Assembly (NCBI GenBank): GCA_039808985.1 | Contig: JBDHUC010000004.1 | Span: 26,050-90,049, forward strand | Reading direction: 5' to 3' | Source of the DNA: Alphaproteobacteria bacterium | GTDB lineage: Bacteria; Pseudomonadota; Alphaproteobacteria; Rickettsiales; SXRF01 | DNA length: 64,000 nucleotides | Shown: piece after piece, positions 1,809 to 63,495 of the stretch | Layout: each line of letters opens with the position of its first letter | How positions within the stretch are numbered: position 1 is the first letter of the stretch | The notes under the pieces: generated by a model | Told to the model about the DNA's origin: nothing | Database searches by the model: none | Seen by the model: only the letters and a program-made list of their open reading frames with translations | Made by a program: the position numbers and the translations under genes

Positions 1809-3626
1809 ATGACCAAAACCTATGGTAAATCCACCCTTCCCTCCCGCCATGTAACCGAAGGGCCGCAACGTGCTCCGCACCGTTCCTATCTTTACGCCAT
1901 GGGCATAACCGAAGCGGCTATACATGCGCCGCTAGTTGGTGTCGCCACCACCTGGAACGAAGCCGCGCCATGCAACATCACTCTCGCCCGTCAGGCGCAG
2001 GTGGTAAAAAAAGGCGTGGCGGCAGCAGGTGGAACCCCTCGTGAATTTACGACAATCACCGTAACCGATGGCATCGCAATGGGGCACCAGGGCATGAAAT
2101 CATCGCTGGTTTCGCGTGAGGTGATAGCCGATTCGGTCGAGCTTACCATGCGCGGCCATTCCTATGACGCACTGGTCGGGCTTGCAGGCTGCGATAAATC
2201 CCTGCCCGGCCTGATGATGGCTATGGTTCGCCTGAACGTGCCCAGCGTATTCATCTATGGCGGCTCTATACTTCCGGGAAAATTCAAGGGCAAACAGGTG
2301 ACTGTTGTCGATGTATTCGAAGGGGTGGGAAGCCACAGCGCGGGCAATATGAGCGAAGAAGATCTGCACGAGCTGGAACAGGTCGCCTGCCCATCGGCTG
2401 GTTCATGCGGCGGGCAGTTCACCGCCAACACCATGGCCTGCGTGTCCGAAGCCATAGGCCTTGCCCTGCCCGGCTCCGCTGGTGCTCCTGCGCCTTATGA
2501 ATCGCGTGACCAGTTTGGGTTCGAGTCTGGCCGCGCGGTTATGGAACTGCTCAAAAACAAAATCCGCCCGCGCGATATAGTCACCCGCAAGGCATTGGAA
2601 AACGCCGCAGCAGTGGTCGCGGCAACCGGCGGTTCGACCAATGCAGCGCTTCACCTGCCAGCTATCGCCAATGAATGCGGCATTGACTTTGACATCCACG
2701 CGGTCGGCGAAGTATTCAAGCGCACCCCATACCTTGCCGATTTGATGCCCGGCGGCAAATATTCCGCCAAGGATATGTATGAGGCAGGCGGCGTTCAGAT
2801 AGTTCTCAAAACCCTGCTTGACGGCGGCTACCTCCATGGCGATGGCCTGACCGTAACCGGAAAAACAATGGCCGAGAATTTGAAAAATGTAAAATTCCCT
2901 ACATTCCGTCATCCTGTGAATCACTCCAGTGATTGCACAGGATCTAAGACGGCAAAAGATCCTGCGCAACCGCTTCGCCCCTCGCAGGATGACAGTGAGG
3001 GCCAGAATGTTGTCCGTCCCTATAACGACCCGATAACCCCAACCGGCGGCGTAGTAGTGCTTAAAGGCAACCTTGCCCCGGAAGGAGCAATCGTAAAAGT
3101 CGCAGGCATGAAGAATCTGGTATTTAAAGGCACCGCGCTATGTTTTGATTGCGAGGAAGATGCCTTCGCTGCGGTCGAGAAAAAGCAATATAAGGAAGGC
3201 GATGTTATAGTCATACGTTATGAAGGCCCACGCGGCGGCCCAGGTATGCGCGAAATGCTATCAACCACCGCTGCCCTCTATGGGCAGGGCGCTGGCGATA
3301 AGGTAGCGCTTATAACTGATGGTCGTTTTTCCGGCGGCACCCGTGGTTTCTGCATAGGCCATGTCGGCCCCGAAGCGGCAGTTGGCGGCCCTATCGGCCT
3401 GCTAAAGAACGGCGATGTTATAACTATTGATGCAACAAACTCCACCATCCATGTTGAACTTTCCGATGCCGAACTGGAAAAACGCCGCGCAGAATGGAAA
3501 CCACGCAGAAATGATTACGGCTCCGGCGCATTGTGGAAATACGCGCAGATCGTAGGCCCGGCAGAAAAAGGCGCGCTGACTCATCCCGGCGCAAACGCAG
3601 AAACCAAAGCCTATGCGGATATTTAA
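1809..3626 (+). CDS. ilvD: dihydroxy-acid dehydratase, carrying an in-frame repeat-element insertion
   Basis: 605-aa ORF with IlvD/Edd signatures throughout ([53 protein letters not shown]). Confidence 0.93.
2908..2993. repeat. Family-C double-hairpin element inserted in-frame in ilvD
   Basis: GTCATCCTGTGA...GCACAGGATCT ... GATCCTGCGCAA...CGCAGGATGAC. The same two-stem architecture occurs in the intergenic copies at 24698-24800, 34574-34662, 6957-7045 and 57040-57152. Confidence 0.8.
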
Positions 3627-4572
3627 ACTGCTGTTTAATCCACTGCTTATATGTATTGCAGCAGGGATAGCCTATGGGGTCTGCCTGCTTTCCGGCAGGT
3701 TCTGGCTGGCCGACCTTGTAGTCCATTTCCGCCTGCATATGACAGTAGCTTTTTTTATGTTCGCTATTTTATTCATCCTGCAAAAACATTGGCGCTATTC
3801 GCTGTGTATGCTTGCATTCTCCATTTGCTCTGCAATCGCGGTCCAGTCAGCCTTTGCGCCACCATCGCAGCCGGAGGGAACCGCAAAAGCAAGCCTTAAA
3901 ATACTGCAGTTTAATATACTTTATACAAATGAGGAATTTGCAAAAGCCATACCATGGATAATAGCTCAGGACGCCGATATAGTGGTATTGCAGGAGGTGA
4001 ATGAAGCCCGCGCCGGGGAAATGGGGCCTCTTAAAGAATATTACAAATGGTCGCAGATAAAAATAAACCCGCAGCGCGAAGCTTTCGGTATGGCTATATT
4101 CAGCAACCTTCCAGTAACAAAATTCGATTACGTGAATATAGGCCGGGGATGGAATAAATATACCAGGACAGAGTTCATGGTGAATAATACCCCATTTCAT
4201 CTCTACGAATTACACACACCGCCGCCTATGTCGCGGTTTTTCTTTTCCCAGCGTAACCGTGCTTTAGAACTCATGGGCAATCTTCTTTCCGAGGACCAGA
4301 CACAGCACCGTATCCTGCTTGGCGACCTGAACACGACTATTTACTCGCCATTTTTTAGCAATATACTTTCAAAAACCGGAATGCACCATGCCCAGCAGGG
4401 CTATAATATGGAGGGAACATGGCCGCAAGCCCTGCCAATGCCGCTTAGAATAGGAATAGACCATATAATAGCATCGAGGCAGGTAAAGGTTGAAAGCCGG
4501 GAAGTCCAGGGGTACCATGGCTCCGACCATTTGCCGGTAATAACAAAACTAACATTTTATGAGGATAAATAA
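3613..4572 (+). CDS. membrane-anchored endonuclease/exonuclease/phosphatase (EEP) family protein (COG3021/YafD-like)
   Basis: Three N-terminal hydrophobic helices are followed by EEP motifs ([37 protein letters not shown]). The start overlaps the ilvD stop by 14 nt. Confidence 0.7.
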
Positions 4573-6802: not shown

Positions 6803-7060
6803 CCATCCTGTGAGGCGCGCAACGGCAACAACGTCATCCTGCAAATTCGTAAGTATTGCGCAGGATCTCATGATATTTTCTCAGTTTGTCATGCCGCCGG
6901 ATGGCGGTATCCGGTATTAAGCCCCAGACCCCGCAACAAATGCGGGGCGACAGTTTCCGTCCTGTGAGGCGCGCAACGACTGCACAGAATCTGTATCAAT
7001 AATCCTGATATCCTGCGCAATTGCCACTGCAATTCGCAGGACGACACCCACTCACACTAA
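6803..7060. repeat. Nested cluster of family-C and family-D elements
   Basis: Truncated C hairpin-1 arm (6803-6824), reverse C hairpin-2 (6833-6871), reverse D double hairpin (6886-6952), then a complete C element (6957-7045) with the ACACCCACTCACACTA tail. Confidence 0.8.
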
Positions 7061-7093: not shown

Positions 7094-8485
7094 TCACCCT
7101 ACCTTTTCCTCAGCAGTGGCAATTCCCAGCAATTTAAGCTTGCGGTGCAAGGCCGAGCGTTCCATACCCACAAAAGAAGATGTGCGAGAAATATTCCCGC
7201 CAAAACGTTCTATCTGCGCGGCCAGATATTGTTTTTCGAACAGCTCCCGGGCTTCACGCAACACCATCGACATAATATCGGCATTAGTTTCCGGACGCGC
7301 CAGCACAGGGTTTGAAGTCAGTATTTCCGGCGGCAACTCGTCAGCGGTAATATTTTCTGTTTTCCCGGTAGTCATGATAAGCAGCCATTCCATCATATTA
7401 CGAAGCTGGCGCACATTCCCCGGCCAGCTATATGCCTGAAGCATAACAATAGCTTCCTGCGACAGCGAGCGCACAGGCAAACCAGCGATTTCAGAAGCCC
7501 GTTTTAAAAAATAGCTGCAAAGCTCTGGTATATCTTCGCGGCGTTCCTTAAGCGATGGGATACGAACCGGAACCACATTAAGCCGGTAATACAGATCTTC
7601 GCGGAAGCGTCCGGCAGCAATTTCATTTTCCAGATTATGGTTGCTGGCAGCAATAACCCGCACATCAACTTCCACCTTCTGTTTGCCACGCTGGCGGGTA
7701 AAGCTCTGCTCCTGTAATGCCCGCAGGATTTTTCCCTGTATTTCCAGCGGCAGGTCAAGCACCTCGTCAATAAACAATGTGCCATTATGTGCGCGTTCCA
7801 GAAGCCCAAGTTTTTCTGCTCCTCCGGTCGGATTCGTATCCTCGATACCAAATAATTCCGCTTCAACCCGGTCCGCGGTTAAGCCGGAAACATTCATAAC
7901 CACGAAATTAGCGGCTGAACGTGTTGATTTAGCGTGGATCATCCTCGCGTACATTTCTTTGCCAGTTCCCGGAGCGCCAGTTATAAGCACCCGGCTGGCG
8001 GTTGGCGCAATTTTTTCCAACGCATTGCGAAGCTGTTGTACGGTCTGGGAAGTGCCATTTAGCTGCATTTCAAACTTGCCGCGTGATTTAAGCTCAGTAT
8101 TTTCATTGCGCAGCTTGGCATTTTCCAGTGCGCGGGCGACAACCAGAAGCAGCCTATCCTCTTTAAATGGTTTTTCGATAAAATCATAAGCCCCCATTTT
8201 AATAGCCGAAACCGCAGTTTCTATATTTCCATGGCCGCTTATCATAATAACCGGAATATGGGGATATTTCTTCTTAACCATTTCCAGTATTCCAAGCCCA
8301 TCAAGCTCGCTGCCCTGCAACCATATATCCAGGACTATAGCCGACGGCACACGTTCAGCGAGCGCTTTGAATGCAAAATCACTGTTATGAGCCACTCTTG
8401 TGTCATATTTAGCATCTTTAAGAATATCGGAGATTAATTCGCGGATGTCTGCTTCATCATCAATAATCAATATGTCAGCGGTCAT
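7094..8485 (-). CDS. ntrX: sigma-54-interacting response regulator NtrX
   Basis: Receiver (ILIIDDEADIRE...VLDIWLQG), AAA+ (ITGAPGTGKE) and a C-terminal HTH. Strong resemblance to alphaproteobacterial NtrX, and it lies downstream of ntrY. Confidence 0.85.
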   Translation of the reverse strand: MTADILIIDDEADIRELISDILKDAKYDTRVAHNSDFAFKALAERVPSAIVLDIWLQGSELDGLGILEMVKKKYPHIPVIMISGHGNIETAVSAIKMGAYDFIEKPFKEDRLLLVVARALENAKLRNENTELKSRGKFEMQLNGTSQTVQQLRNALEKIAPTASRVLITGAPGTGKEMYARMIHAKSTRSAANFVVMNVSGLTADRVEAELFGIEDTNPTGGAEKLGLLERAHNGTLFIDEVLDLPLEIQGKILRALQEQSFTRQRGKQKVEVDVRVIAASNHNLENEIAAGRFREDLYYRLNVVPVRIPSLKERREDIPELCSYFLKRASEIAGLPVRSLSQEAIVMLQAYSWPGNVRQLRNMMEWLLIMTTGKTENITADELPPEILTSNPVLARPETNADIMSMVLREARELFEKQYLAAQIERFGGNISRTSSFVGMERSALHRKLKLLGIATAEEKVG

Positions 8486-8898
8486 ATTACCTCTAGTTGC
8501 AAGTAATTAGTGGTTAGTGATAAGTCATCAGAAGAAACAAGCTTTTTATGTAATGATTTTTGCAATCCATTCACCATGCGCCCTACCTCATCTGCGCTTT
8601 CTTTTAATATATCAAGATTTTCTATGCTTATAAAACCTAGATTTTTAGCAATAACAAGCTGTGTCTGTAATTCTGCAAGCGAGCCATTGCTAATGCTTAT
8701 AAATCTTAAAAAATCCTTTGTGCTTTCCCGACAAGAGCCTTCCGCTATATTGCTTGGTATTGAAACAGCGGCTCTGCGCATTTGCGCTGTAAGGCCATAT
8801 ATTTCTTCCTTAGGAAAAGATGCAGTGCAGTTATAAACCTGCGTTACAAGATTTACAGCTTTTTGCCAGACTTTTAGTTCCTCGTAATAATGTGCCAC
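8482..8898 (-). CDS. four-helix-bundle protein (23S rRNA intervening-sequence protein / Avd superfamily)
   Basis: GTG start with AGGAAA upstream. KVWQKA...FPKEEIYGLTAQMRRAAVSIPSNIAEG...GSLAELQTQL is the canonical TIGR02436/PF05635 pattern. Its stop overlaps the ntrX ATG (ATGA). Confidence 0.85.
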   Translation of the reverse strand: MAHYYEELKVWQKAVNLVTQVYNCTASFPKEEIYGLTAQMRRAAVSIPSNIAEGSCRESTKDFLRFISISNGSLAELQTQLVIAKNLGFISIENLDILKESADEVGRMVNGLQKSLHKKLVSSDDLSLTTNYLQLEVI

Positions 8899-24697: not shown

Positions 24698-24800
24698 GTC
24701 ATCCTGTGGACGGCGAAGCCGTAGCACAGGATCTGTTCAACAACCCTGAGATCCTGCGCAATGCTTACGCATTCGCAGGATGACACCCCACACTCACACT
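24698..24800. repeat. Family-C double-hairpin element (complete, intergenic)
   Basis: GTCATCCTGTGGACGGCGAAGCCGTAGCACAGGATCT...GAGATCCTGCGCAATGCTTACGCATTCGCAGGATGAC plus the ACCCCACACTCACACTA tail. Confidence 0.85.
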
Positions 24801-25690: not shown

Positions 25691-26443
25691 ATGCAAACTG
25701 CAAAAACCTCATATACAGCCTGCCTTATTATAATAGGCAATGAGATACTTTCCGGGCGCACACAGGATAAGAATATCCAGTATATTGCATCCGGTCTTAA
25801 TGATGCCGGGGTTAAACTCTCCGAAGTCCGTGTTATCCCCGATATTAACCAAACCATTATAAATACAGTAAAATCCTGCTCTGAGCTATTCGATTATGTT
25901 TTCACAACAGGCGGCATAGGCCCTACCCATGACGATATAACCAGCGAAGCCATAGCGCAGGCTTTTTCTGTTCCACTGGAACGTAACAAGGAAGCAGAAG
26001 CCATCCTGGAAAAACATTATGGCCGGGAAAAATTAAATGCCGCCCGCCTTAAAATGGCCGATATACCAGCAGGGGCAAAGCTTATATATAATCCGGTCAG
26101 CGCCGCGCCCGGCTTCATAATCAGCAATATTTATGTAATGGCAGGGGTTCCAGGCATCATGCAGGCCATGTTCGACAGCATAAAGGGCAAGCTGCGCGGC
26201 GGGGCAAAAACCCTGTCCAAAACTATTTCTGTTTATATGACCGAGGGCTATATTGCCGAAGGTATGGCAAGCATCCAGAATAAATATCCCAATGTCGAAA
26301 TCGGCAGCTACCCCTTCATAAAAAACCAGAAGCTGGGAACGAGTTTGGTATGCCGCGCAACCGACCCACAAATGCTGGATTCATGCTACGCAGAACTCAA
26401 AACTTTCCTTATGGGCTTTAAATCAGAAATCGAGGAGGAGTAG
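25691..26443 (+). CDS. CinA-like / MoCF-biosynthesis (molybdopterin-binding) domain protein
   Basis: LIIIGNEILSGRTQDKN...TTGGIGPTHDDIT is the MoCF_biosynth/CinA N-terminal domain pattern. Confidence 0.75.
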   Translation: MQTAKTSYTACLIIIGNEILSGRTQDKNIQYIASGLNDAGVKLSEVRVIPDINQTIINTVKSCSELFDYVFTTGGIGPTHDDITSEAIAQAFSVPLERNKEAEAILEKHYGREKLNAARLKMADIPAGAKLIYNPVSAAPGFIISNIYVMAGVPGIMQAMFDSIKGKLRGGAKTLSKTISVYMTEGYIAEGMASIQNKYPNVEIGSYPFIKNQKLGTSLVCRATDPQMLDSCYAELKTFLMGFKSEIEEE

Positions 26444-26454
26444 ACTGTATTGTC

Positions 26455-26634
26455 ATACTGCGAATGCGTAATCATTGAGCAGGATCTCAGGATTATTGAG
26501 CAGATTACTCCACCTCCTCAAAAACCATTCTTGTCATTCCCGCCTTGAGCGGGAATCCAGAAACAAACCCATCGTAATAAATTGTAGCGCTACCTACCCG
26601 CCTACGCGACATGACAAGTAGAGGCTGTGATACC
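26455..26634. repeat. Family-C half element (26455-26503) followed by a D-variant MITE (26528-26634) flanked by a 24-bp direct duplication
   Basis: ATTACTCCACCTCCTCAAAAACCA occurs at 26504-26527 and 26635-26658. The insert has CTTGTCAT...ATGACAAG ends. Confidence 0.8.
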
Positions 26635-34355: not shown

Positions 34356-34433
34356 TGGGGCGAGTGAGGGGACTCGAACCCCCGACATCCAGAATCACAA
34401 TCTGGCGCTCTAACCAACTGAGCTACACCCGCC
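34356..34433 (-). tRNA. tRNA-His (GTG), with encoded G-1 and 3' CCA
   Basis: Reverse complement GGCGGGTGTAGCTCAGTTGGTTAGAGCGCCAGATTGTGATTCTGGATGTCGGGGGTTCGAGTCCCCTCACTCGCCCCA folds as a cloverleaf. The anticodon loop is TTGTGAT. Confidence 0.9.
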
Positions 34434-34573: not shown

Positions 34574-34662
34574 GTCATCCCGCAAATGCGTAAGCATTGC
34601 GCAGGATCTCGGGATTATTGATACAGATCCTGTGCTACGGCTTCGTCGCCCGCAGAATGACT
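34574..34662. repeat. Family-C double-hairpin element (inverted orientation)
   Basis: GTCATCCCGCAAATGCGTAAGCATTGCGCAGGATCTC...GATCCTGTGCTACGGCTTCGTCGCCCGCAGAATGAC. Confidence 0.8.
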
Positions 34663-40714: not shown

Positions 40715-40722
40715 TTATAGCT

Positions 40723-40800
40723 CAGGATTCGGGATTCAGAATTCAGGAAGTAAGGGAGTTTTCCTTTCCCCTGACCTCTGAATCCCGAATCCTGACCCCT
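40723..40800. repeat. GATTCAG/GAATCCTGA heptamer-rich hairpin without cargo, downstream of flbD
   Basis: CAGGATTCGGGATTCAGAATTCAGG...CCTGACCTCTGAATCCCGAATCCTGACCCCTG. The arms match the inverted repeats at 62106-62138 and 62529-62553. Confidence 0.8.
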
Positions 40801-40842
40801 GTTTCGCGGAGCGAAACCAATGCCTGAGGCCACCGCAACAGC

Positions 40843-41216
40843 TTTAACTTGTCACCCCGCCGAATGGCGGGGTCTGGGACCAATATGAAAGAATATAATT
40901 ATTATGTTTATATTATGGCAAAAGAGCGAAACAGCACATTTTATACTGGCGTGACTAATAATTTAATCCGCCGCGTTTATGAGCATAAAAATGACTTAGC
41001 CGATGGTTTTACTAAAAAATATGGGATAAAAACTTTGGTATATTACGAACATCATAGCAATATAAATTCAGCAATACACCGAGAAAAATTAATAAAAAAA
41101 TGGAAGCGTGAGTATAAACTCAATGCCATTGAACAACTGAATCCTGACTGGAATGATTTATATTTAGATTTAATAAGGCCAGACCCCGCTATTCGGCGGG
41201 GTTACATTCACGAAAT
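40843..41216. mobile_element. GIY-YIG cassette bounded by family-D hairpins and flanked by a 34-bp direct duplication
   Basis: GAGCGAAACCAATGCCTGAGGCCACCGCAACAGC occurs at 40809-40842 and 41217-41250. The terminal hairpins are CTTGTCACCCCGCCGAATGGCGGGGTCTGG and CCAGACCCCGCTATTCGGCGGGGTTACATTC. Confidence 0.75.
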
Positions 41217-41235
41217 GAGCGAAACCAATGCCTGA
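40885..41235 (+). CDS. GIY-YIG nuclease family protein (COG2827/YhbQ-like)
   Basis: YYVYIMAKERNSTFYTGVTNNLIRRVYEHKN...FTKKYGIKTLVYYE...REKLIKKW is the canonical small GIY-YIG pattern. The ATG at 40885 is preferred over the TTG at 40849. The 3' end overlaps the flhA start. Confidence 0.85.
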   Translation: MKEYNYYVYIMAKERNSTFYTGVTNNLIRRVYEHKNDLADGFTKKYGIKTLVYYEHHSNINSAIHREKLIKKWKREYKLNAIEQLNPDWNDLYLDLIRPDPAIRRGYIHEMSETNA

Positions 41236-43369
41236 GGCCACCGCAACAGCAGCGCCAGCGCAGATTGACTGGCTTGCCCGTGTAAATTCCCTATCACGGC
41301 GCAAGGATATTTATTTTGCGGTTGGCATCATAGCGATACTTGTGGTGTTGATACTTCCGCTGCCATCCTTCCTGCTTGATTTTTTCCTTGGAATTTCCAT
41401 CACCCTTTCAGTTATAATCCTTATGACGGTTCTGTTCGTGGAAAAGCCGCTGCATATGAGCTCCTTCCCCACAATATTGCTTATCGTCACCATGTTGAGG
41501 CTATCACTGAACATAGCTTCAACCCGCCTTATCCTCGCGCATGGGCATGAAGGCACGGCAGCAGCCGGACACGTGATACAGGCCTTTGGCGGCTTCGTAA
41601 TGGGCGGCTCTGTAGTAATCGGCGTTATAATTTTTGGCATACTAACCATCATCAATTTTGTGGTAATCACCAAAGGCTCTGGCCGCATTGCCGAAGTATC
41701 GGCGCGCTTTTCATTAGATGCGATGCCGGGCAAGCAGATGGCTATCGACGCTGACCTGTCAGCAGGCCTCATAACCGAGGAAATGGCCAAAATGCGGCGC
41801 AAGGAAATCGAAGATGAAAGTAATTTCTTCGGCTCGATGGACGGTGCAAGTAAGTTTGTGCGCGGCGATGCGATAGCAGGCCTCCTCATCACCTTTATCA
41901 ACTTTATTGCCGGGATTATTATTGGTGTTGCGCAAAAGGGCCTGCCATTTAATGAAGCGCTCAACCATTACACAGTACTGACTGTCGGCGATGGCCTGGT
42001 ATCACAGATACCAGCGCTAATAGTTTCCACTGCCGCCGGTATACTTGTCACCAAATCAGGTGTTGCCGGTTCAGCCGAAAAAGCGGTACTTGGCCAACTG
42101 AGCCGACACCCGGCAGCCCTTGGCATAACCAGCGTGTTCCTGCTTATGATGTCGGTTCTGCCGGGCATTCCTTTTGTGCCGTTTTTCCTGCTTTCCTGCA
42201 TAACCGGGTTTGGCAGCTATTATCTTTTTAATAACCCGCAGGCCATTAATCCGAAAACCGGCGAGGCCTATCCTTCAGGCACAGCTCCCAAACAAATAGA
42301 AGGCCCGGCAAAAGATGGGGAAGCGCCGAAAACCGAAGAACAGCCAGCCGATTTTTTACAGATTGATTCGTTGCGCCTTGAGCTTGGTTACGGCCTTCTG
42401 CCTCTTATAAACTACCAGAAAGGGCACCGCCTTACCGAGCAAATCAAGGCACTTCGCCGCCAGATGGCACGTGAGCTTGGCTTTATTATCCCTTCTGTAC
42501 GCATTCAGGATAATATGCAGTTACCGCCCAATACTTACGTGGTGAAGGTAAAGGAAATAGAAGCGGCGCGTGGCGACATCCGCCCGGAAATGTTGCTGGT
42601 AATGAACCCAAGCGGCGGGAAAATCACTCTGCCCGGCGAAGAAACAACTGAGCCCACCTTTGGCCTGCCAGCCATGTGGATAAACGAAAACCACCGCGAA
42701 GAAGCTTTGTTCCGCAATTTTACAGTGGTCGACCCGCCTACAATTATTACCACCCATCTGACCGAAGTAATTAAAGACAATATGGCCGAGCTGCTTTCCT
42801 ACGCGGAAACGCAGAAGCTGCTCGATGACCTTGGAAAAACCCAGCAGAAGCTCGTTTCCGAAACCATCCCATCGCAGATAAGCGTTGGCGGCGTGCAGCG
42901 CGTGCTGCAAAACCTCCTGCGTGAGCTGGTTTCCATCCGCGACCTGTCCACCATTATCGAGGCTATCGCCGAAGCCTCGCGCACCACCCAGAATATAAGC
43001 CTGATAAGCGAACATGTGCGCAGCCGCCTTGGCCGCCAGATAAGCCACAGCCAGACCACCGATGGCGGGTATATCCCCATAATCGCTATGTCGCCGGGCT
43101 GGGAACAAACCTTTATTGAAGCGCTTAGCGGCAATGCTGATGACCGCACACTGTCAATGGCCCCAAGCCGCATCCAGGAATTCATCAATAATGTACGTGC
43201 AAGCTTTGATAAATTCGCCATGCAGGGAGAAAGCCCGGTACTGCTAACCAGCCCGGTTATCCGCCCTTATGTGCGCTCGATAGTTGAGCGTTTCCGCCCC
43301 AGCACCGTTGTCATGTCGCAGAATGAAATCTATGCCAAGGCGCGGATAAAAACACTGGGGCAATTATGA
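41228..43369 (+). CDS. flhA: flagellar export apparatus protein FlhA
   Basis: FHIPEP family: FPTILLIVTMLRLSLNIASTRLIL, GRIAEVSARFSLDAMPGKQMAIDADL. 713 aa. Confidence 0.95.
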   Translation: MPEATATAAPAQIDWLARVNSLSRRKDIYFAVGIIAILVVLILPLPSFLLDFFLGISITLSVIILMTVLFVEKPLHMSSFPTILLIVTMLRLSLNIASTRLILAHGHEGTAAAGHVIQAFGGFVMGGSVVIGVIIFGILTIINFVVITKGSGRIAEVSARFSLDAMPGKQMAIDADLSAGLITEEMAKMRRKEIEDESNFFGSMDGASKFVRGDAIAGLLITFINFIAGIIIGVAQKGLPFNEALNHYTVLTVGDGLVSQIPALIVSTAAGILVTKSGVAGSAEKAVLGQLSRHPAALGITSVFLLMMSVLPGIPFVPFFLLSCITGFGSYYLFNNPQAINPKTGEAYPSGTAPKQIEGPAKDGEAPKTEEQPADFLQIDSLRLELGYGLLPLINYQKGHRLTEQIKALRRQMARELGFIIPSVRIQDNMQLPPNTYVVKVKEIEAARGDIRPEMLLVMNPSGGKITLPGEETTEPTFGLPAMWINENHREEALFRNFTVVDPPTIITTHLTEVIKDNMAELLSYAETQKLLDDLGKTQQKLVSETIPSQISVGGVQRVLQNLLRELVSIRDLSTIIEAIAEASRTTQNISLISEHVRSRLGRQISHSQTTDGGYIPIIAMSPGWEQTFIEALSGNADDRTLSMAPSRIQEFINNVRASFDKFAMQGESPVLLTSPVIRPYVRSIVERFRPSTVVMSQNEIYAKARIKTLGQL

Positions 43370-43378
43370 ACAAGCTAT

Positions 43379-43450
43379 CAGGATTCAGGATTCAGGATTC
43401 AGGGAATAATTCTTGCTGCCTGACCTCTGAATCCCGACCTCTGAACCCTG
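43379..43450. repeat. GATTCAG/GAATCCTGA heptamer-rich hairpin without cargo, flhA-flhF spacer
   Basis: CAGGATTCAGGATTCAGGATTCAGGG...CCTGACCTCTGAATCCCGACCTCTGAACCCTG. Confidence 0.8.
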
Positions 43451-47336: not shown

Positions 47337-47443
47337 CTAGAGCGTTTTCGCTTTAGTTGTGCGTTAGGCATCCGAGGCGAAGTGTACAATAGTACATGAG
47401 ACGAAGGATAACAACACGCACGATTAAATGGAAAATGCTCTAG
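47337..47443. repeat. Family-A palindromic element (about 107 bp, MITE-like), intact copy
   Basis: CTAGAGCGTTTTCGCTTTAGTTGTGCGTTAGGCATCCGAGGCGAAGTGTACAATAGTACATGAGACGAAGGATAACAACACGCACGATTAAATGGAAAATGCTCTAG. A second copy lies at 59331-59497. Confidence 0.85.
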
Positions 47444-47457
47444 GGGCTAGTGGCTGG

Positions 47458-47493
47458 GTCATCCTGTGAGGCGCATAGCGACTGCACAGGATC
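47458..47493. repeat. Family-C hairpin-1, solo copy
   Basis: GTCATCCTGTGAGGCGCATAGCGACTGCACAGGATC. Confidence 0.8.
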
Positions 47494-47625
47494 TCGCCTA
47501 ATAGTACGACAGAGAACTTATAAGATATTATTTGGATATATCTTATTTTACTTGAGATATTTCTTATTTTATGCCATCAATAAATTAATTTTCATTAAGT
47601 TCGTTGCTTATCGTTGAGGATTAAA

Positions 47626-48148: not shown

Positions 48149-48781
48149 ATGAAAAAAAACACTAAAAACCCCAAAATACTATACTTGTTTGAGAAAGGAA
48201 TTTCCCAGGGAAGGCAAGGCGAAGTGTACAAAATAGTACATGAGCCGAAGCCTGACATAGGGAAAAACTTAAATCAAACGAGTATAAAATTCACAAGCAA
48301 ACGTGGGCGCCCCAGAATCAACCGTCCGCAAATTGACACCGGAACTCCGGAAACTGTTATGAAACGCCTTCTGGGCCTCACAGCCGAAGCGCTGGATTTA
48401 TGCCTGCAGCATGAAATAATAACCGAAAAGCAGCATTGGTGCGGCATGCATCTACGCTGGCTCTACACTTTACGCCATGGTATCCCAGGCGTCAGGGCAA
48501 ATGACCTGTCCCACATCAGCGTCCGTGATGAAAAATCAGCAGAATATGACGACCCACAATGGCGCGCATTGCGCGAAAGTGAGTATAACCATGCCATAAA
48601 CGCCCTGACCCATAGTGGGCACGCTATTTTAATTATGAATTTATGCATTTATAACGAACTTCCCAAATCATTCAGTTTTTTTACAAAAAACAACAAAAAA
48701 CCTCCATGCCAAACAGCCATTTCTATAAGAAATGGGCTTGATACTCTGGAAACACTATGGAAAAGCAGAAAAAAATCCTAA
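48149..48781 (+). CDS. hypothetical protein with an AT-hook-like motif and an in-frame family-F element
   Basis: KRGRPR (AT-hook core RGRP) at about residue 51. Residues about 11-47 are encoded by the repeat at 48178-48288. Confidence 0.5.
   Translation: MKKNTKNPKILYLFEKGISQGRQGEVYKIVHEPKPDIGKNLNQTSIKFTSKRGRPRINRPQIDTGTPETVMKRLLGLTAEALDLCLQHEIITEKQHWCGMHLRWLYTLRHGIPGVRANDLSHISVRDEKSAEYDDPQWRALRESEYNHAINALTHSGHAILIMNLCIYNELPKSFSFFTKNNKKPPCQTAISIRNGLDTLETLWKSRKKS
48178..48288. repeat. Family-F palindromic element (111 bp) inside ORF 48149-48781
   Basis: ACTATACTTGTTTGAGAAAGGAATTTCCCAGGGAAGGCAAGGCGAAGTGTAC...GTACATGAGCCGAAGCCTGACATAGGGAAAAACTTAAATCAAACGAGTATA. Shorter copy at 63623-63706. Confidence 0.75.
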
Positions 48782-56968: not shown

Positions 56969-57152
56969 ATAGCGGGGTCTGGGCCTTAGGCTTAATACCG
57001 GATGCCGCCATACGGCGATATGACAAGCTGGGAAAACATCCTGAGATCCTGCGCAATGTTTACGCATTCGCAGGACGACACCCACACTATCCCCTGTGAA
57101 GCGCGCCGCCACAAAACAGTCATCCTGTGAGGAGCGGAGCGACTGCACAGGA
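56927..57152. repeat. Nested cluster of family-C and family-D elements
   Basis: C hairpin-1 5' arm (56927-56950), D double hairpin (56952-57028), C hairpin-2 plus tail (57040-57092), then a complete C hairpin-1 (57119-57152). Confidence 0.8.
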
Positions 57153-57157
57153 CTCCA

Positions 57158-57601
57158 TCAACCATTAAGCAGCTTATCGATCTCTTCATTACTCAAAGCC
57201 CGTGATTCAGCCGCTGGCTCAGCAGCAGGTGGCGGTGCTGGTGGTGGTTCAGGCGCAGCCTGGACAGGCGCGGCAGCAACTGGCTCTTCAGGTTTTTGCG
57301 GGGGTTGGTCTTCGCTATAGTTATCAGCGCTTTCCGGTTCCATACTACCTATAAAATCCTGGTTTAGAACCTGGTTCAAATGAATGACATTAAAACCAAG
57401 CGGATCGTGCCGCTGGATCTTATATATTTTTTTATTTTTGCAGGCAGCCATGGCATCAAGTGCAGAAGCGGCTTCCACCAGTTCAAAATTTTTTCTATCA
57501 CGATAAACGCGATACACCATAGCTGAGGAAAGTTGCAAATCCTTGCGCGGAATAAACAATTCTTCAAAAGGTTCTTTATTTTCTTCTTTCATATTCTCCA
57601 T
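57158..57601 (-). CDS. hypothetical protein with a Pro/Ala-rich C-terminal region
   Basis: ORF 57158-57625. The start is ambiguous (TTG 57625, ATG 57601 or ATG 57592). No recognised domain. Confidence 0.45.
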   Translation of the reverse strand: MENMKEENKEPFEELFIPRKDLQLSSAMVYRVYRDRKNFELVEAASALDAMAACKNKKIYKIQRHDPLGFNVIHLNQVLNQDFIGSMEPESADNYSEDQPPQKPEEPVAAAPVQAAPEPPPAPPPAAEPAAESRALSNEEIDKLLNG

Positions 57602-59242: not shown

Positions 59243-59536
59243 TTGTCATACCGGGCTTGAGCCAGGATCCATGGCTACAAATTCCATCGGCGAATACTCC
59301 CTGGATCCCCCGCCTGCGCGGTGATGACAACTAGAGCGTTTTCGCTTTAGTTGTGCGTTAGGCATCCGAGGCGAAGTGTACACAGCAAATCCACATGTGG
59401 GATTTGCTTTTTATAAATTACAAAATCCCGCATGCGGATTTTGTTAGTACATGAGACGAAGGATAACAACACGCACGATTAAATGGAAAATGCTCTAACT
59501 AATTACGAACTACGAAATACTAATTACGAATTATGG
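59243..59536. repeat. Stack of four repeat elements between fabF and mltG
   Basis: D-variant (59243-59330), family A (59331-59497) interrupted by family B (59383-59447), then a TAATTACGAA-type heptamer tract (59497-59536). Confidence 0.8.
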
Positions 59537-62088: not shown

Positions 62089-62105
62089 TTTTGTCCTCAT
62101 GTTTA

Positions 62106-62553
62106 GGGATTCAGGATTTAGGATTCAGGATTCGGGGGAAGAAAGTTTTTTATCCAGACTTTTTATAAGCCCATTGAGCATTTTTCCAACTTCCATATAT
62201 CCATTAAATAAATACAATATTGCTTGCTCAGTTGTGTAACCTAAATCACTGGCAATATAAAGCTGTGTTTCAACTTCAGCAACAGAACCATAAGCTATAT
62301 CAAGAAAGCGCATGTATTCTTTGGTAGTCCTGCGTGATTTTCCTTCAGCTATATTCGATGGAACAGAAACAGCCGCCCTTTGTAATTGACTGGATAAACC
62401 ATATAATTCTTCTTTTGGAAATGTCTTTGTTAACTTATAAACAGCAGCGACCAAAACCCTTGATTTCTGCCAAACTTCCAAATCACGATAACTATTAATA
62501 TTCATAATCTTATCTTGAATTTTCTCTGCCCCCTGAATCCTGACCCCTGAATC
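62106..62553. mobile_element. Inverted-repeat-bounded cassette carrying a four-helix-bundle gene between fabD and fabG
   Basis: Left arm GGGATTCAGGATTTAGGATTCAGGATTCGGGGG (62106-62138). Right arm CCCCCTGAATCCTGACCCCTGAATC (62529-62553) abuts the fabD stop codon. Confidence 0.55.
62125..62505 (-). CDS. four-helix-bundle protein (23S rRNA intervening-sequence protein / Avd superfamily)
   Basis: YRDLEVWQKS...FPKEELYGLSSQLQRAAVSVPSNIAEG...GSVAEVETQL. Paralog of 8482-8898. Confidence 0.88.
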   Translation of the reverse strand: MNINSYRDLEVWQKSRVLVAAVYKLTKTFPKEELYGLSSQLQRAAVSVPSNIAEGKSRRTTKEYMRFLDIAYGSVAEVETQLYIASDLGYTTEQAILYLFNGYMEVGKMLNGLIKSLDKKLSSPES

Positions 62554-63495
62554 CTATTCTACCTTGGCAAACGCTTCCAAATCAGCAACCGTCCCGACAT
62601 TCATCGCCTGCACATCAGGGGCGCAGCGCTTCATAAGGCCTGAGAGCACTTTCCCGGCGCCTATTTCAATTACGCGGGTTACGCCCTGCTGCGCCAGATA
62701 TTCCATTGATTCGCGCCAGCGCACCACTTCTGTAACCTGGTCAACAAGCAGGTCACGCAGCATCTGCGGATCATTTTCCGCTTTTGCCGTGACGTTAGTT
62801 ACAACCGGAACAATCGGGGCATTAAATTTCGCAGCCGCAAGCGCCGATGCCATAACGCCGGAAGCCGGGGCCATCAGGGCACAATGGAACGGCGCGCTTA
62901 CTTCCAGCATCATTGCACGTTTTGCGCCTTTATCCTTGGCAATTATGATTGCGCGGTCGATCGCAGTTCGCGTTCCGCTTATAACCACCTGCCCCGGCGC
63001 GTTATCGTTAGCGACGCTGCAAACTTCTTCGCCTGCCGCCTGGTTGGCGATTTCTTCAGCCATATCGCGGTCAATCCCAATCAGTGCTGCCATAGCGCCA
63101 TTGCCGTCATGCACGCAACGCTGCATCGAAAGCCCACGCACACGCAGCAACCGTGCTGTTTCAGCAAGCCCGAGCACCCCATCGGCGCAAAGGGCGGAAT
63201 ATTCGCCCAGGGAATGGCCAGCGACAAAAGCCGCCTGCTTTTTAAGGTCGAATCCAAATTCGCTCTGTAAAACACGGAAGGCAGCTATAGATGTCGCCAT
63301 AATAGCTGGCTGGGCGTTTTCAGTAAGGGTCAGCAGGTCTTGCGGCCCATTAAATATAATATCGGAAAAATCTTCCGAAAGGGCATTATCGACTTCTTCA
63401 AAAACCTCGCGTGCGGCTGCAAAGTTATCGGCCAACTCTTTCCCCATGCCAACCACCTGCGATCCCTGCCCTGGAAACAATAACGCCTTTTTCAT
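62554..63495 (-). CDS. fabD: malonyl-CoA-ACP transacylase
   Basis: LFPGQGSQ, GHSLGEYSAL and the conserved C-terminal half. The ATG at 63495 (MKKALLFPGQGSQ) is preferred over 63531. Confidence 0.93.
   Translation of the reverse strand: MKKALLFPGQGSQVVGMGKELADNFAAAREVFEEVDNALSEDFSDIIFNGPQDLLTLTENAQPAIMATSIAAFRVLQSEFGFDLKKQAAFVAGHSLGEYSALCADGVLGLAETARLLRVRGLSMQRCVHDGNGAMAALIGIDRDMAEEIANQAAGEEVCSVANDNAPGQVVISGTRTAIDRAIIIAKDKGAKRAMMLEVSAPFHCALMAPASGVMASALAAAKFNAPIVPVVTNVTAKAENDPQMLRDLLVDQVTEVVRWRESMEYLAQQGVTRVIEIGAGKVLSGLMKRCAPDVQAMNVGTVADLEAFAKVE

Follow-up and report, generated by a model that had tools for sequence, protein, structure and literature searches.

How does an essential iron-sulphur enzyme come to carry palindromic repeat DNA within its reading frame, and how does that DNA persist there? 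The question is raised by ilvD, the gene for dihydroxy-acid dehydratase (DHAD), in a 64,000-nt stretch of a metagenome-assembled genome (MAG) of an uncultured alphaproteobacterium (positions 26,050 to 90,049 of contig JBDHUC010000004.1, assembly GCA_039808985.1; hereafter the window, meaning this whole stretch). A reading of the sequence alone, here called the original prediction, had proposed that a palindromic element, related to intergenic repeats termed family C, is inserted in frame in an otherwise intact ilvD. We consider it probable that a non-autonomous palindromic repeat of this family did insert into ilvD, and that it has been tolerated at a permissive linker between the two domains of the enzyme, a linker at which related species carry other palindromic inserts.

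A 96-nt insertion in an intact ilvD

The ilvD frame is uninterrupted over 605 residues, as predicted, and scores 696 bits against the equivalog model TIGR00110, whose cut-off is 618. Its two Pfam domains, ILVD_EDD_N (residues 41-357) and ILV_EDD_C (residues 400-589), are set further apart than in an insert-free orthologue, where the C-terminal domain begins at residue 368, while Cys55, Cys128-Asp-Lys and Cys200 (ligands of the cluster and of Mg) and the TDGRFSG motif do not vary between the protein and 118 orthologues. Among the 120 best IlvD relatives (77-100% identical, mostly 573 residues long), the loop from AENL to Q(D/N)VV counts exactly 8 residues in 99, and the same length is found at 78 of 80 more distant metagenome loci (69-80% identity), which served as a control and not as near-empty-site alleles; the native segment is therefore shorter than the dozen or so residues initially assumed.

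The closest orthologue without an insert (P0006, at the syntenic locus L001; 91% amino-acid identity) reads GTA AAA TTT CCC GAT GGT CAG GAT (V K F P D G Q D) at this place. Where it has KFP-DG-QDV, the window has KFP-(32 residues)-EG-QNV, with 96 nt added between CCT (P) and GAG (E). An extra segment of about 30 residues had been announced; it stands as an insertion relative to the orthologues, and codon-level comparison with L001 and with a second relative, L002, sets its exact extent at 96 nt or 32 residues (2901-2996), made up of 7 nt (ACATTCC), an 86-nt element and 3 nt (AGT).

Synteny is kept on both flanks of the gene, and a second, independent MAG (L030, GCA_964410315.1) has the identical 96 nt within 7,018 bp of DNA that is collinear with the window at 99.44% identity. 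Because the insert is identical in this second MAG and 18 of the 19 differences between the two ilvD genes are synonymous, the gene looks functional and under constraint. The insertion itself is recent and lineage-specific, since family C was found neither in 58.7 kb of syntenic DNA from the three closest other species (L001-L003) nor in 825 kb of the distant loci.

The inserted DNA is a double hairpin with copies across the window

The element consists of the two consecutive stem-loops originally described, in the order GTCATCCTGTG (2908-2918), CACAGGAT (2936-2943), CT...AG, ATCCTGCG (2959-2966) and CGCAGGATGAC (2983-2993), and the segment folds at -42 kcal/mol (z = -5.5). Its kinship with the intergenic repeats is borne out by a leave-one-out nhmmer profile: built from the three full intergenic copies alone, it detects the ilvD copy at E = 2.5e-10, and the best match is on the minus strand, the ilvD copy being inverted relative to that at 24698. 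The window contains 14 occurrences of the terminal 11-nt motif GTCATCCTGYG, as against 1.03 expected. Family C is represented in the 64 kb by four full copies and at least five half copies, all of them intergenic except the one in ilvD (Table 1). Three of the intergenic copies that had been named were recovered, at 6957-7045, 24698-24784 and 34574-34661, whereas the supposed copy at 57040-57152 turned out to be two half-units (57038-57079 and 57119-57161).

An alignment of 29 copies (four from the window, one from the related locus L006 and 24 from ten MAGs, retrieved by a hairpin pattern search of a genome collection) gives the unit form (C/T/A)GTC-ATCCTGYG-(13-17 nt)-CRCAGGAT-C, with two units placed tail to tail around a spacer of 10-25 nt. 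The consensus fold comprises two separate hairpins, in which the 8-bp stems ATCCTGYG/CRCAGGAT are paired in 26-29 of the 29 copies at each position and enclose 13-17 nt that hold a second, covarying inner stem. Compensatory changes are seen at 12 of the 25 stem pairs, one position being C-G in 13 copies and U-A in 13. The tag at position -4 is C in 15 copies, T in nine, A in four and G in none, and is followed by G, T and C in 24, 25 and 24 of 28 copies, respectively; the right end mirrors this arrangement, with a near-invariant C directly after the palindrome, and the stem begins with AT. On average 2.3 of the six frames of family C are stop-free, against 1.9 for shuffled sequences; this is no convincing enrichment, and survival within genes therefore looks like filtering rather than design.

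The insert occupies the inter-domain loop

The insert sits in the 8-residue connecting loop that joins the N- and C-terminal IlvD/EDD domains. It lies in the gap between the Pfam domains (357-400), and PDB alignments of the protein are interrupted at residues 362/395, the break in the alignment with Mycobacterium tuberculosis IlvD (6ovt) falling between 6ovt residues 401 and 404. An AlphaFold2 model matches DHAD structures (TM 0.69-0.75 to 6ovt) with a mean predicted local distance difference test (pLDDT) score of 70.8; pLDDT is about 94 at residues 341-360, drops to about 30 at residues 371-390 and returns to 93 at residues 401-410, the insert being modelled as a low-confidence coil without secondary structure. 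The connecting loop is long and already length-variable across the superfamily, and 6-phosphogluconate dehydratase has an extra beta-hairpin in the connecting region (PMC5770437). Residue 360 of the window IlvD aligns with residue 369 of the 6-phosphogluconate dehydratase structure.

From the preserved frame, and from an insert inherited by another clade (see below), we infer that the 96 nt are most probably translated, yielding a 32-residue hydrophilic, disordered extension that is presumably neutral for the enzyme.

The same loop has received unrelated palindromes

Extra residues in this loop are carried by 20 of the 120 closest orthologues, a set in which no other internal indel of at least 3 residues occurs. 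When the loop is masked and a neighbour-joining tree computed, these 20 carriers form 13 groups interspersed among sequences with the 8-residue loop, and their inserts comprise at least 8 unrelated sequences adding 5 to 34 residues. Among the distant relatives, whose loci are devoid of family C, a single one of 80 has an insert.

The insert DNA was read for six of the sequences, all six of which are hairpin formers: a family-C-like double hairpin in L006, whose right stem merges into the native CAG GAT G codons; TGTCATCCTGAGCG...CGCTCGGGATGACA in L004; a 100-nt GC-rich palindrome in L007, contained in a 159-nt loop segment that folds at -95.8 kcal/mol; and other palindromes in L002, L003 and L005. 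When further copies were sought for each of the ilvD inserts other than family C, only the L007 type (CCCTCTCCC/GGGAGAGGG) proved multicopy; the remaining ones would be repeats to judge from their palindromic form.

In L002, the nearest relative of the window with a different allele (93% identical by BLASTP and 97% when aligned), an unrelated insert of 51 nt occupies the codon boundary used in the window. L002 and the window agree in their junction bases (xCx TTY C ... xGT GAG), which weakly suggests that the window element replaced, or nested into, an older insert; this would account for the 10 extra nt, as possible leftovers of an insert that L002 and the window once had in common. In a clade of six orthologues the insert has been inherited and is always 20 residues long, with 59% identity as opposed to 92% for the rest of the protein, a pattern that fits a translated but weakly constrained linker.

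A Phe codon (TTT; TTC in the window) stands directly 5' of the palindrome in eight inserts, representing seven of the 13 groups plus L034. Such junctions (K-F-P-x-F...) are present in the window (2901-2907), L002, L003, L004, L005, L007 and L034, and adjoin unrelated element families; TTT is not part of family C in the intergenic copies. The codon may have been left by an ancestral insert, or reflect microhomology at the junction or a preference for the target.

Such recurrent use of one enzyme hinge is new within the literature searched. The closest precedent is a note that different repetitive extragenic palindromes (REPs) occur at about the same site in Xanthomonas recB (PMC3733652). The locus provides a natural experiment, in which the 8-residue hinge of an essential Fe-S enzyme took up 5-34 residues at least eight times independently; it marks the hinge as a highly permissive site for IlvD/EDD engineering, and as a comparative system for the conversion of selfish hairpin DNA into protein sequence.

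Family C lies in frame within other genes

Seven of the 29 full family-C copies are in frame within long open reading frames (ORFs); for six of the seven, Pfam or NCBIfam confirms the gene. Besides ilvD (in the window and in L006), the hosts are atpG (L008), recF (L018), lnt (L015, between the LNT_N and CN_hydrolase domains), an APH-family, thrB-like kinase gene (L020) and a 534-residue ORF without a Pfam match (L009). Several of these genic copies encode the common frame RHPV...DPAQ...SQDD, which is also the peptide frame of published CGTC-1 peptides such as RHPGGGRDD (PMC3733652).

L008 (MAG RE-15aug16-6) has family-C copies at 585-677 and 937-1022; one is in frame in atpG, and the second full copy ends about 3 nt beyond the atpG stop codon.

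Family C belongs to a known class of tagged palindromes

By its sequence features, family C is best placed as a long-loop family within the class of CGTC-tagged REPs and NTS/SRM repeats, and is not a new kind of element. The family with its long loops is previously undescribed, with no match in Rfam, even at E <= 1, and none in 72,556 PLSDB plasmid records.

CGTC-tagged REPs have the tag CGTC, 'changed to TGTC' in many repeats, and an 8-9 bp stem starting with A-T; they occur mostly as inverted dimers, mainly in Alphaproteobacteria, with no dedicated transposase known, and their superfamily includes Rickettsia RPE-4 and RPE-6 and Neisseria dRS3 (PMC3733652). Family C shares with them the CGTC/TGTC tag, the 8-bp AT-initial stem, the inverted dimers with a spacer and the intragenic dimers of 20-30 residues, but its loop measures 13-17 nt instead of 4-5 nt and so lies outside the loop length of the four described families.

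In-frame intragenic REPs have been recorded since 2000 in Rickettsia and since 2013 in many other bacteria. [quoted passage not shown] The view that the Rickettsia palindromic elements (RPEs) are the only well-known precedent must therefore be abandoned.

The original prediction also held that the ilvD element behaves like an RPE but has a different sequence and a different host. Its first part stands, both being palindromic repeats that lie between genes and in frame in housekeeping genes, at tolerant positions and with the frame kept. The second overstates the novelty, as the tag and the AT-initial 8-bp stem are common to family C and the superfamily to which RPE-4 and RPE-6 are assigned. 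RPE-6 dimers encode about 30 residues ending in ...GND, and family-C dimers about 30 residues ending in ...QDD, in the same tag frame. Back-translation of the published RPE-6 peptide SFLRKQES gives GTCATTCCTGCGCAAGCAGGAATC, which would start one base off family C's GTCATCCTGCG and would share GTCAT(T)CCTGCG with it; on the same footing, the stem ATCCTGYG of family C would differ from that of the RPE, ATTCCTGC. Unlike family C with its long structured loops of 13-17 nt, RPE-4 and RPE-6 have loops of 4-5 nt, and the RPE-1 of about 150 bp is unrelated to it.

The hosts differ as well: the present one encodes ilvD, flagella and ntrYX, unlike the reduced Rickettsia, and its gene content (ilvD, flagellar fliF, ntrYX, fab genes) looks free-living. 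NCBI records label several relatives of the host 'Rickettsiales bacterium'. Rickettsia-style protein-coding palindromes are thus extended to an uncultured, apparently free-living freshwater alphaproteobacterial lineage, and coding-palindrome behaviour is tied to the CGTC-REP/Ssn-repeat class.

Other mobile palindromes are less close. REPINs, which are REP doublets mobilised by the tyrosine transposase RAYT, resemble family C in their two inverted hairpins with a spacer, their non-autonomy and their single-hairpin remnants, but bear a GTAG and not a CGTC tag, and no transposase domain or RAYT/IS200-like gene was found among 20 window ORFs scanned, most of them adjoining repeat copies. MITEs such as Coxiella QMITE, ERIC and BOX (PMC10969869) are similarly short, have terminal inverted repeats and extend or interrupt ORFs in frame, but are characterised by a target-site duplication and a parent insertion sequence (IS), neither of which was found for family C.

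Family P hairpins bracket a GIY-YIG nuclease gene

NTS/SRM repeats flank small GIY-YIG nuclease (Ssn) genes, and Ssn cuts the repeats as single-stranded DNA; for Neisseria SsnA, cleavage depends on the three bases 5' of the palindrome and binding most on the C just after it (PMC11893778, 2025). Family C is similar in having HGTC before the palindrome and a C directly after it, but it fails the published motif, HGTCWYN(0-2)YYVSBRHN(0-5)WNVSBRGN(0-2)RNCYNB, because its loops are long and structured, and its assignment to SRM by that motif was rejected.

A second hairpin family in the window, family P (TGTC-ACCCCGC-loop-GCGGGGT-CTGG), gives four strict SRM matches, against 0.1 in shuffles. Two inverted family-P hairpins bracket a small, AT-rich gene for a single-domain GIY-YIG protein (Table 1), and the same bracket is found in all three homologues in the DNA examined (the window and two others); in the window, the hairpin at 41179-41206 encodes the C-terminal PDPAIRRG of the protein. 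No PDB match was obtained for the protein. By domain and architecture it is likened to Ssn, which is known to cut single-stranded DNA and to modulate transformation, not to transpose, and it is a candidate for a hairpin nuclease acting in trans in this genome. The idea that the cassette is an undescribed 'REPtron' for CGTC repeats was rejected, because it matches the published Ssn/NTS architecture.

A perfect 34-bp direct duplication (40809-40842 and 41217-41250) flanks the GIY-YIG cassette and reaches into the gene that follows (41228-43369), of which it includes the start codon and the first 23 nt. It looks like the footprint of a mobile insertion; in the Ssn paper, IS-like mobility is only hypothesised (PMC11893778).

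Two further occurrences of family P may be recorded. One hairpin of the form given above lies at 1748-1776 on the plus strand, 32 nt 5' of the ilvD start, and is a strict SRM fit; a hairpin is present at the same place in L002 (9942-9965) and L030 (4149-4172) and was not found in L001 by pattern scan. It might influence how ilvD is transcribed or how stable the upstream mRNA is. The other is ileS of L006 (1395-4736), which contains three separate in-frame palindromic inserts: a CCCTCTCCC/GGGAGAGGG element at 1521-1560 with the peptide LPLPAGEGRGEG, and two family-P hairpins at 2316-2339 (TPQQVRGD) and 3967-3989 (DPAIQRGD), the latter adjoining a classical TGTC-ATGCCGCC-GAAT-GGCGGCAT hairpin.

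Origin of the insert and alternative explanations

The explanation that we favour runs as follows. A non-autonomous, tail-to-tail dimer of two tagged hairpins would have inserted into ilvD, as one of the hairpin repeats that are abundant in the lineage and land in many places. It would have been tolerated given a length that is a multiple of three, a read frame free of stops and a location in an inter-domain loop, while selection would remove gene-breaking insertions, so that survivors accumulate at permissive linkers. Repeat load combined with such a selection filter would explain the variety of palindromic inserts that related species have in this one loop. A candidate mover would be a nuclease of the Ssn type working on single-stranded hairpins, and mobilisation of family C as single-stranded hairpin DNA by the GIY-YIG protein (40885-41235) or a paralogue is, by analogy, a speculative proposal.

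Several observations weigh against this explanation. Every event falls in one 8-residue loop of a 573-residue enzyme with many surface loops, a concentration that exceeds the expectation from a pure selection filter. The length of the 86-nt element is by itself not divisible by three, which leaves 10 further nt (ACATTCC, AGT) to be accounted for. No target-site duplication and no conserved flank beyond the tag was found around 28 family-C copies. As to the proposed mover, no family-C hairpin fits the strict SRM motif, a single copy fitting once a loop of up to 20 nt is allowed; it is family P, not family C, that flanks the ssn-like gene of the window, and the DNA examined showed no ssn-like gene with family C on its flanks. 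The presence of the 32 residues in mature IlvD is, moreover, something that we infer from the reading frame.

The concentration of events in one loop also bears on the alternative that the linker is a targeted integration site, directed by local DNA (TTYCCN ... CAGGATG) or structure, so that mechanism and not selection brings the inserts there. The linker would then be a preferred landing pad for CGTC/SRM-class and other palindromes, via its native sequence or via a mechanism dependent on replication or single-stranded DNA, and elements could also be exchanged or excised precisely at the site. We regard this as unlikely, and retain it as a minority reading because of the one-loop concentration, the CAGGATG mimic and the recurring 5' TTT/TTC codon: the 13 insert groups are no more than about 2-8 codons apart, and the native CAGGATG (codons Q-D-V), with which the right stem of the L006 element merges, is identical to the family-C terminus CGCAGGATGAC. 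Targeting accords less well with the diversity of at least 8 unrelated sequences at the site, including GC-rich CCCTCTCCC/GGGAGAGGG palindromes without a motif common to family C, with the flanks of the 28 family-C copies, which hold no conserved target beyond the tag, and with the presence of family C in five other genes amid unrelated flanks; the single insert among the 80 distant relatives without family C at their loci fits the product of repeat load and site permissiveness. A landing pad, if true, would be the first natural read-out of CGTC/SRM repeat integration.

The remaining alternatives carry far less weight. Exaptation, in which the peptide or an mRNA or DNA hairpin would give IlvD a new property (regulation, interaction, mRNA stability or recombination protection), seems to us very improbable: two MAGs are fixed for the insert, another clade has kept an inherited insert at exactly 20 residues, the stem pairs covary and NTS repeats modulate the integration of transforming DNA in Neisseria (PMC11893778), but the closest relatives have no insert or unrelated ones, the inherited insert evolves at about 5 times the rate of the remaining protein, disorder is predicted for the insert in the window, and covariation is equal in intergenic copies and so reflects the element and not IlvD. 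Removal of the segment before the mature protein, in an intron-like, intein-like or bypassing manner, is less credible still. A hairpin as stable as -42 kcal/mol, together with the indirect case for translation, could be cited in its favour, but Rfam gives no match even at E <= 1, 96 nt or 32 residues is far below the size of known self-splicing introns or inteins, and the 20 insert-bearing orthologues, the L034 insert and the seven genic family-C copies are all stop-free multiples of three, which removal would not need (the IlvD set consists of full-length hits, from which frameshifted alleles would have been missed); RPE-bearing Rickettsia proteins have, in addition, been reported as expressed (cited in PMC3733652). 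An assembly artefact or a decaying pseudogene is the least believable of these explanations: the source is a MAG, and repeats can mis-join contigs, but the same 96 nt stand at the same place in the independent assembly L030, the ratio of synonymous to non-synonymous differences is 18:1, the equivalog cut-off is exceeded and synteny extends on both sides.

Other features of the window

The coordinates of the ilvD locus, the family-C copies and the GIY-YIG cassette are collected in Table 1. No rRNA gene was found in the window by Rfam.

Table 1. Features of the ilvD locus, of family C and of the GIY-YIG cassette in the window.
Feature	Coordinates	Strand	Evidence
ilvD (dihydroxy-acid dehydratase), 605 aa, intact	1809-3626	+	open ORF, TIGR00110, Pfam
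Extra segment, 96 nt / 32 codons, between KFP and EGQ codons	2901-2996	+	codon-level comparison with L001, L002
Family-C element in ilvD, 86-nt dimer of two tagged hairpins	2908-2993	-	leave-one-out nhmmer, alignments, fold
Hairpin 1: ATCCTGTG / CACAGGAT, inner stem AATCAC / GTGATT	2911-2943		
Hairpin 2: ATCCTGCG / CGCAGGAT	2959-2990		
Single-hairpin half copy of family C, B-type	6833-6874	-	E = 1.5e-8
Full intergenic family-C copy	6957-7045	+	E = 6.9e-24; no overlapping ORF
Full intergenic family-C copy	24698-24784	+	E = 4.1e-25
Half copy of family C, spacer + hairpin B	26452-26505	-	E = 1.9e-10
Full intergenic family-C copy, beside tRNA gene (34359-34432)	34574-34661	-	E = 2.4e-25
Inverted family-P hairpins bracketing the GIY-YIG gene	40850-40877 and 41179-41206		
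Small single-domain GIY-YIG gene, Ssn-like, 116 aa, AT-rich	40885-41235	+	Pfam GIY-YIG
Single-hairpin half copy of family C, A-type	47458-47496	+	E = 1.2e-6
Single-hairpin half copy of family C, B-type	57038-57079	+	E = 5.1e-10
Single-hairpin half copy of family C, A-type	57119-57161	+	E = 3.4e-5

Between the ntrX-like and ntrY-like genes lies a 138-residue ORF (8482-8898, minus strand), which by synteny with L002 would be a four-helix-bundle protein (Pfam 23S_rRNA_IVP / bAvd) and is absent at the same position in L001 and L003. A third type of repeat consists of GGATTCAGG-like heptamer runs paired with their complement (TCAGGATTCGGGATTCAGAATTCAGG ... CCTGACCTCTGAATCCCGAATCCTGA); these repeats, at 40722-40801, 43378-43450, 62097-62137 and 62522-62555, all lie in short gaps just 3' of genes and may act as terminators. 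Finally, two blocks of about 50 nt (CTAGAGCGTTTTCGC... and TAGTACATGAGACGAAGG...) recur with 100% identity in intergenic DNA at 47337-47442 and 59331-59497, 12 kb apart and with a different spacing between the blocks at each place, and related pieces are found at 295-318 and 48234-48286.

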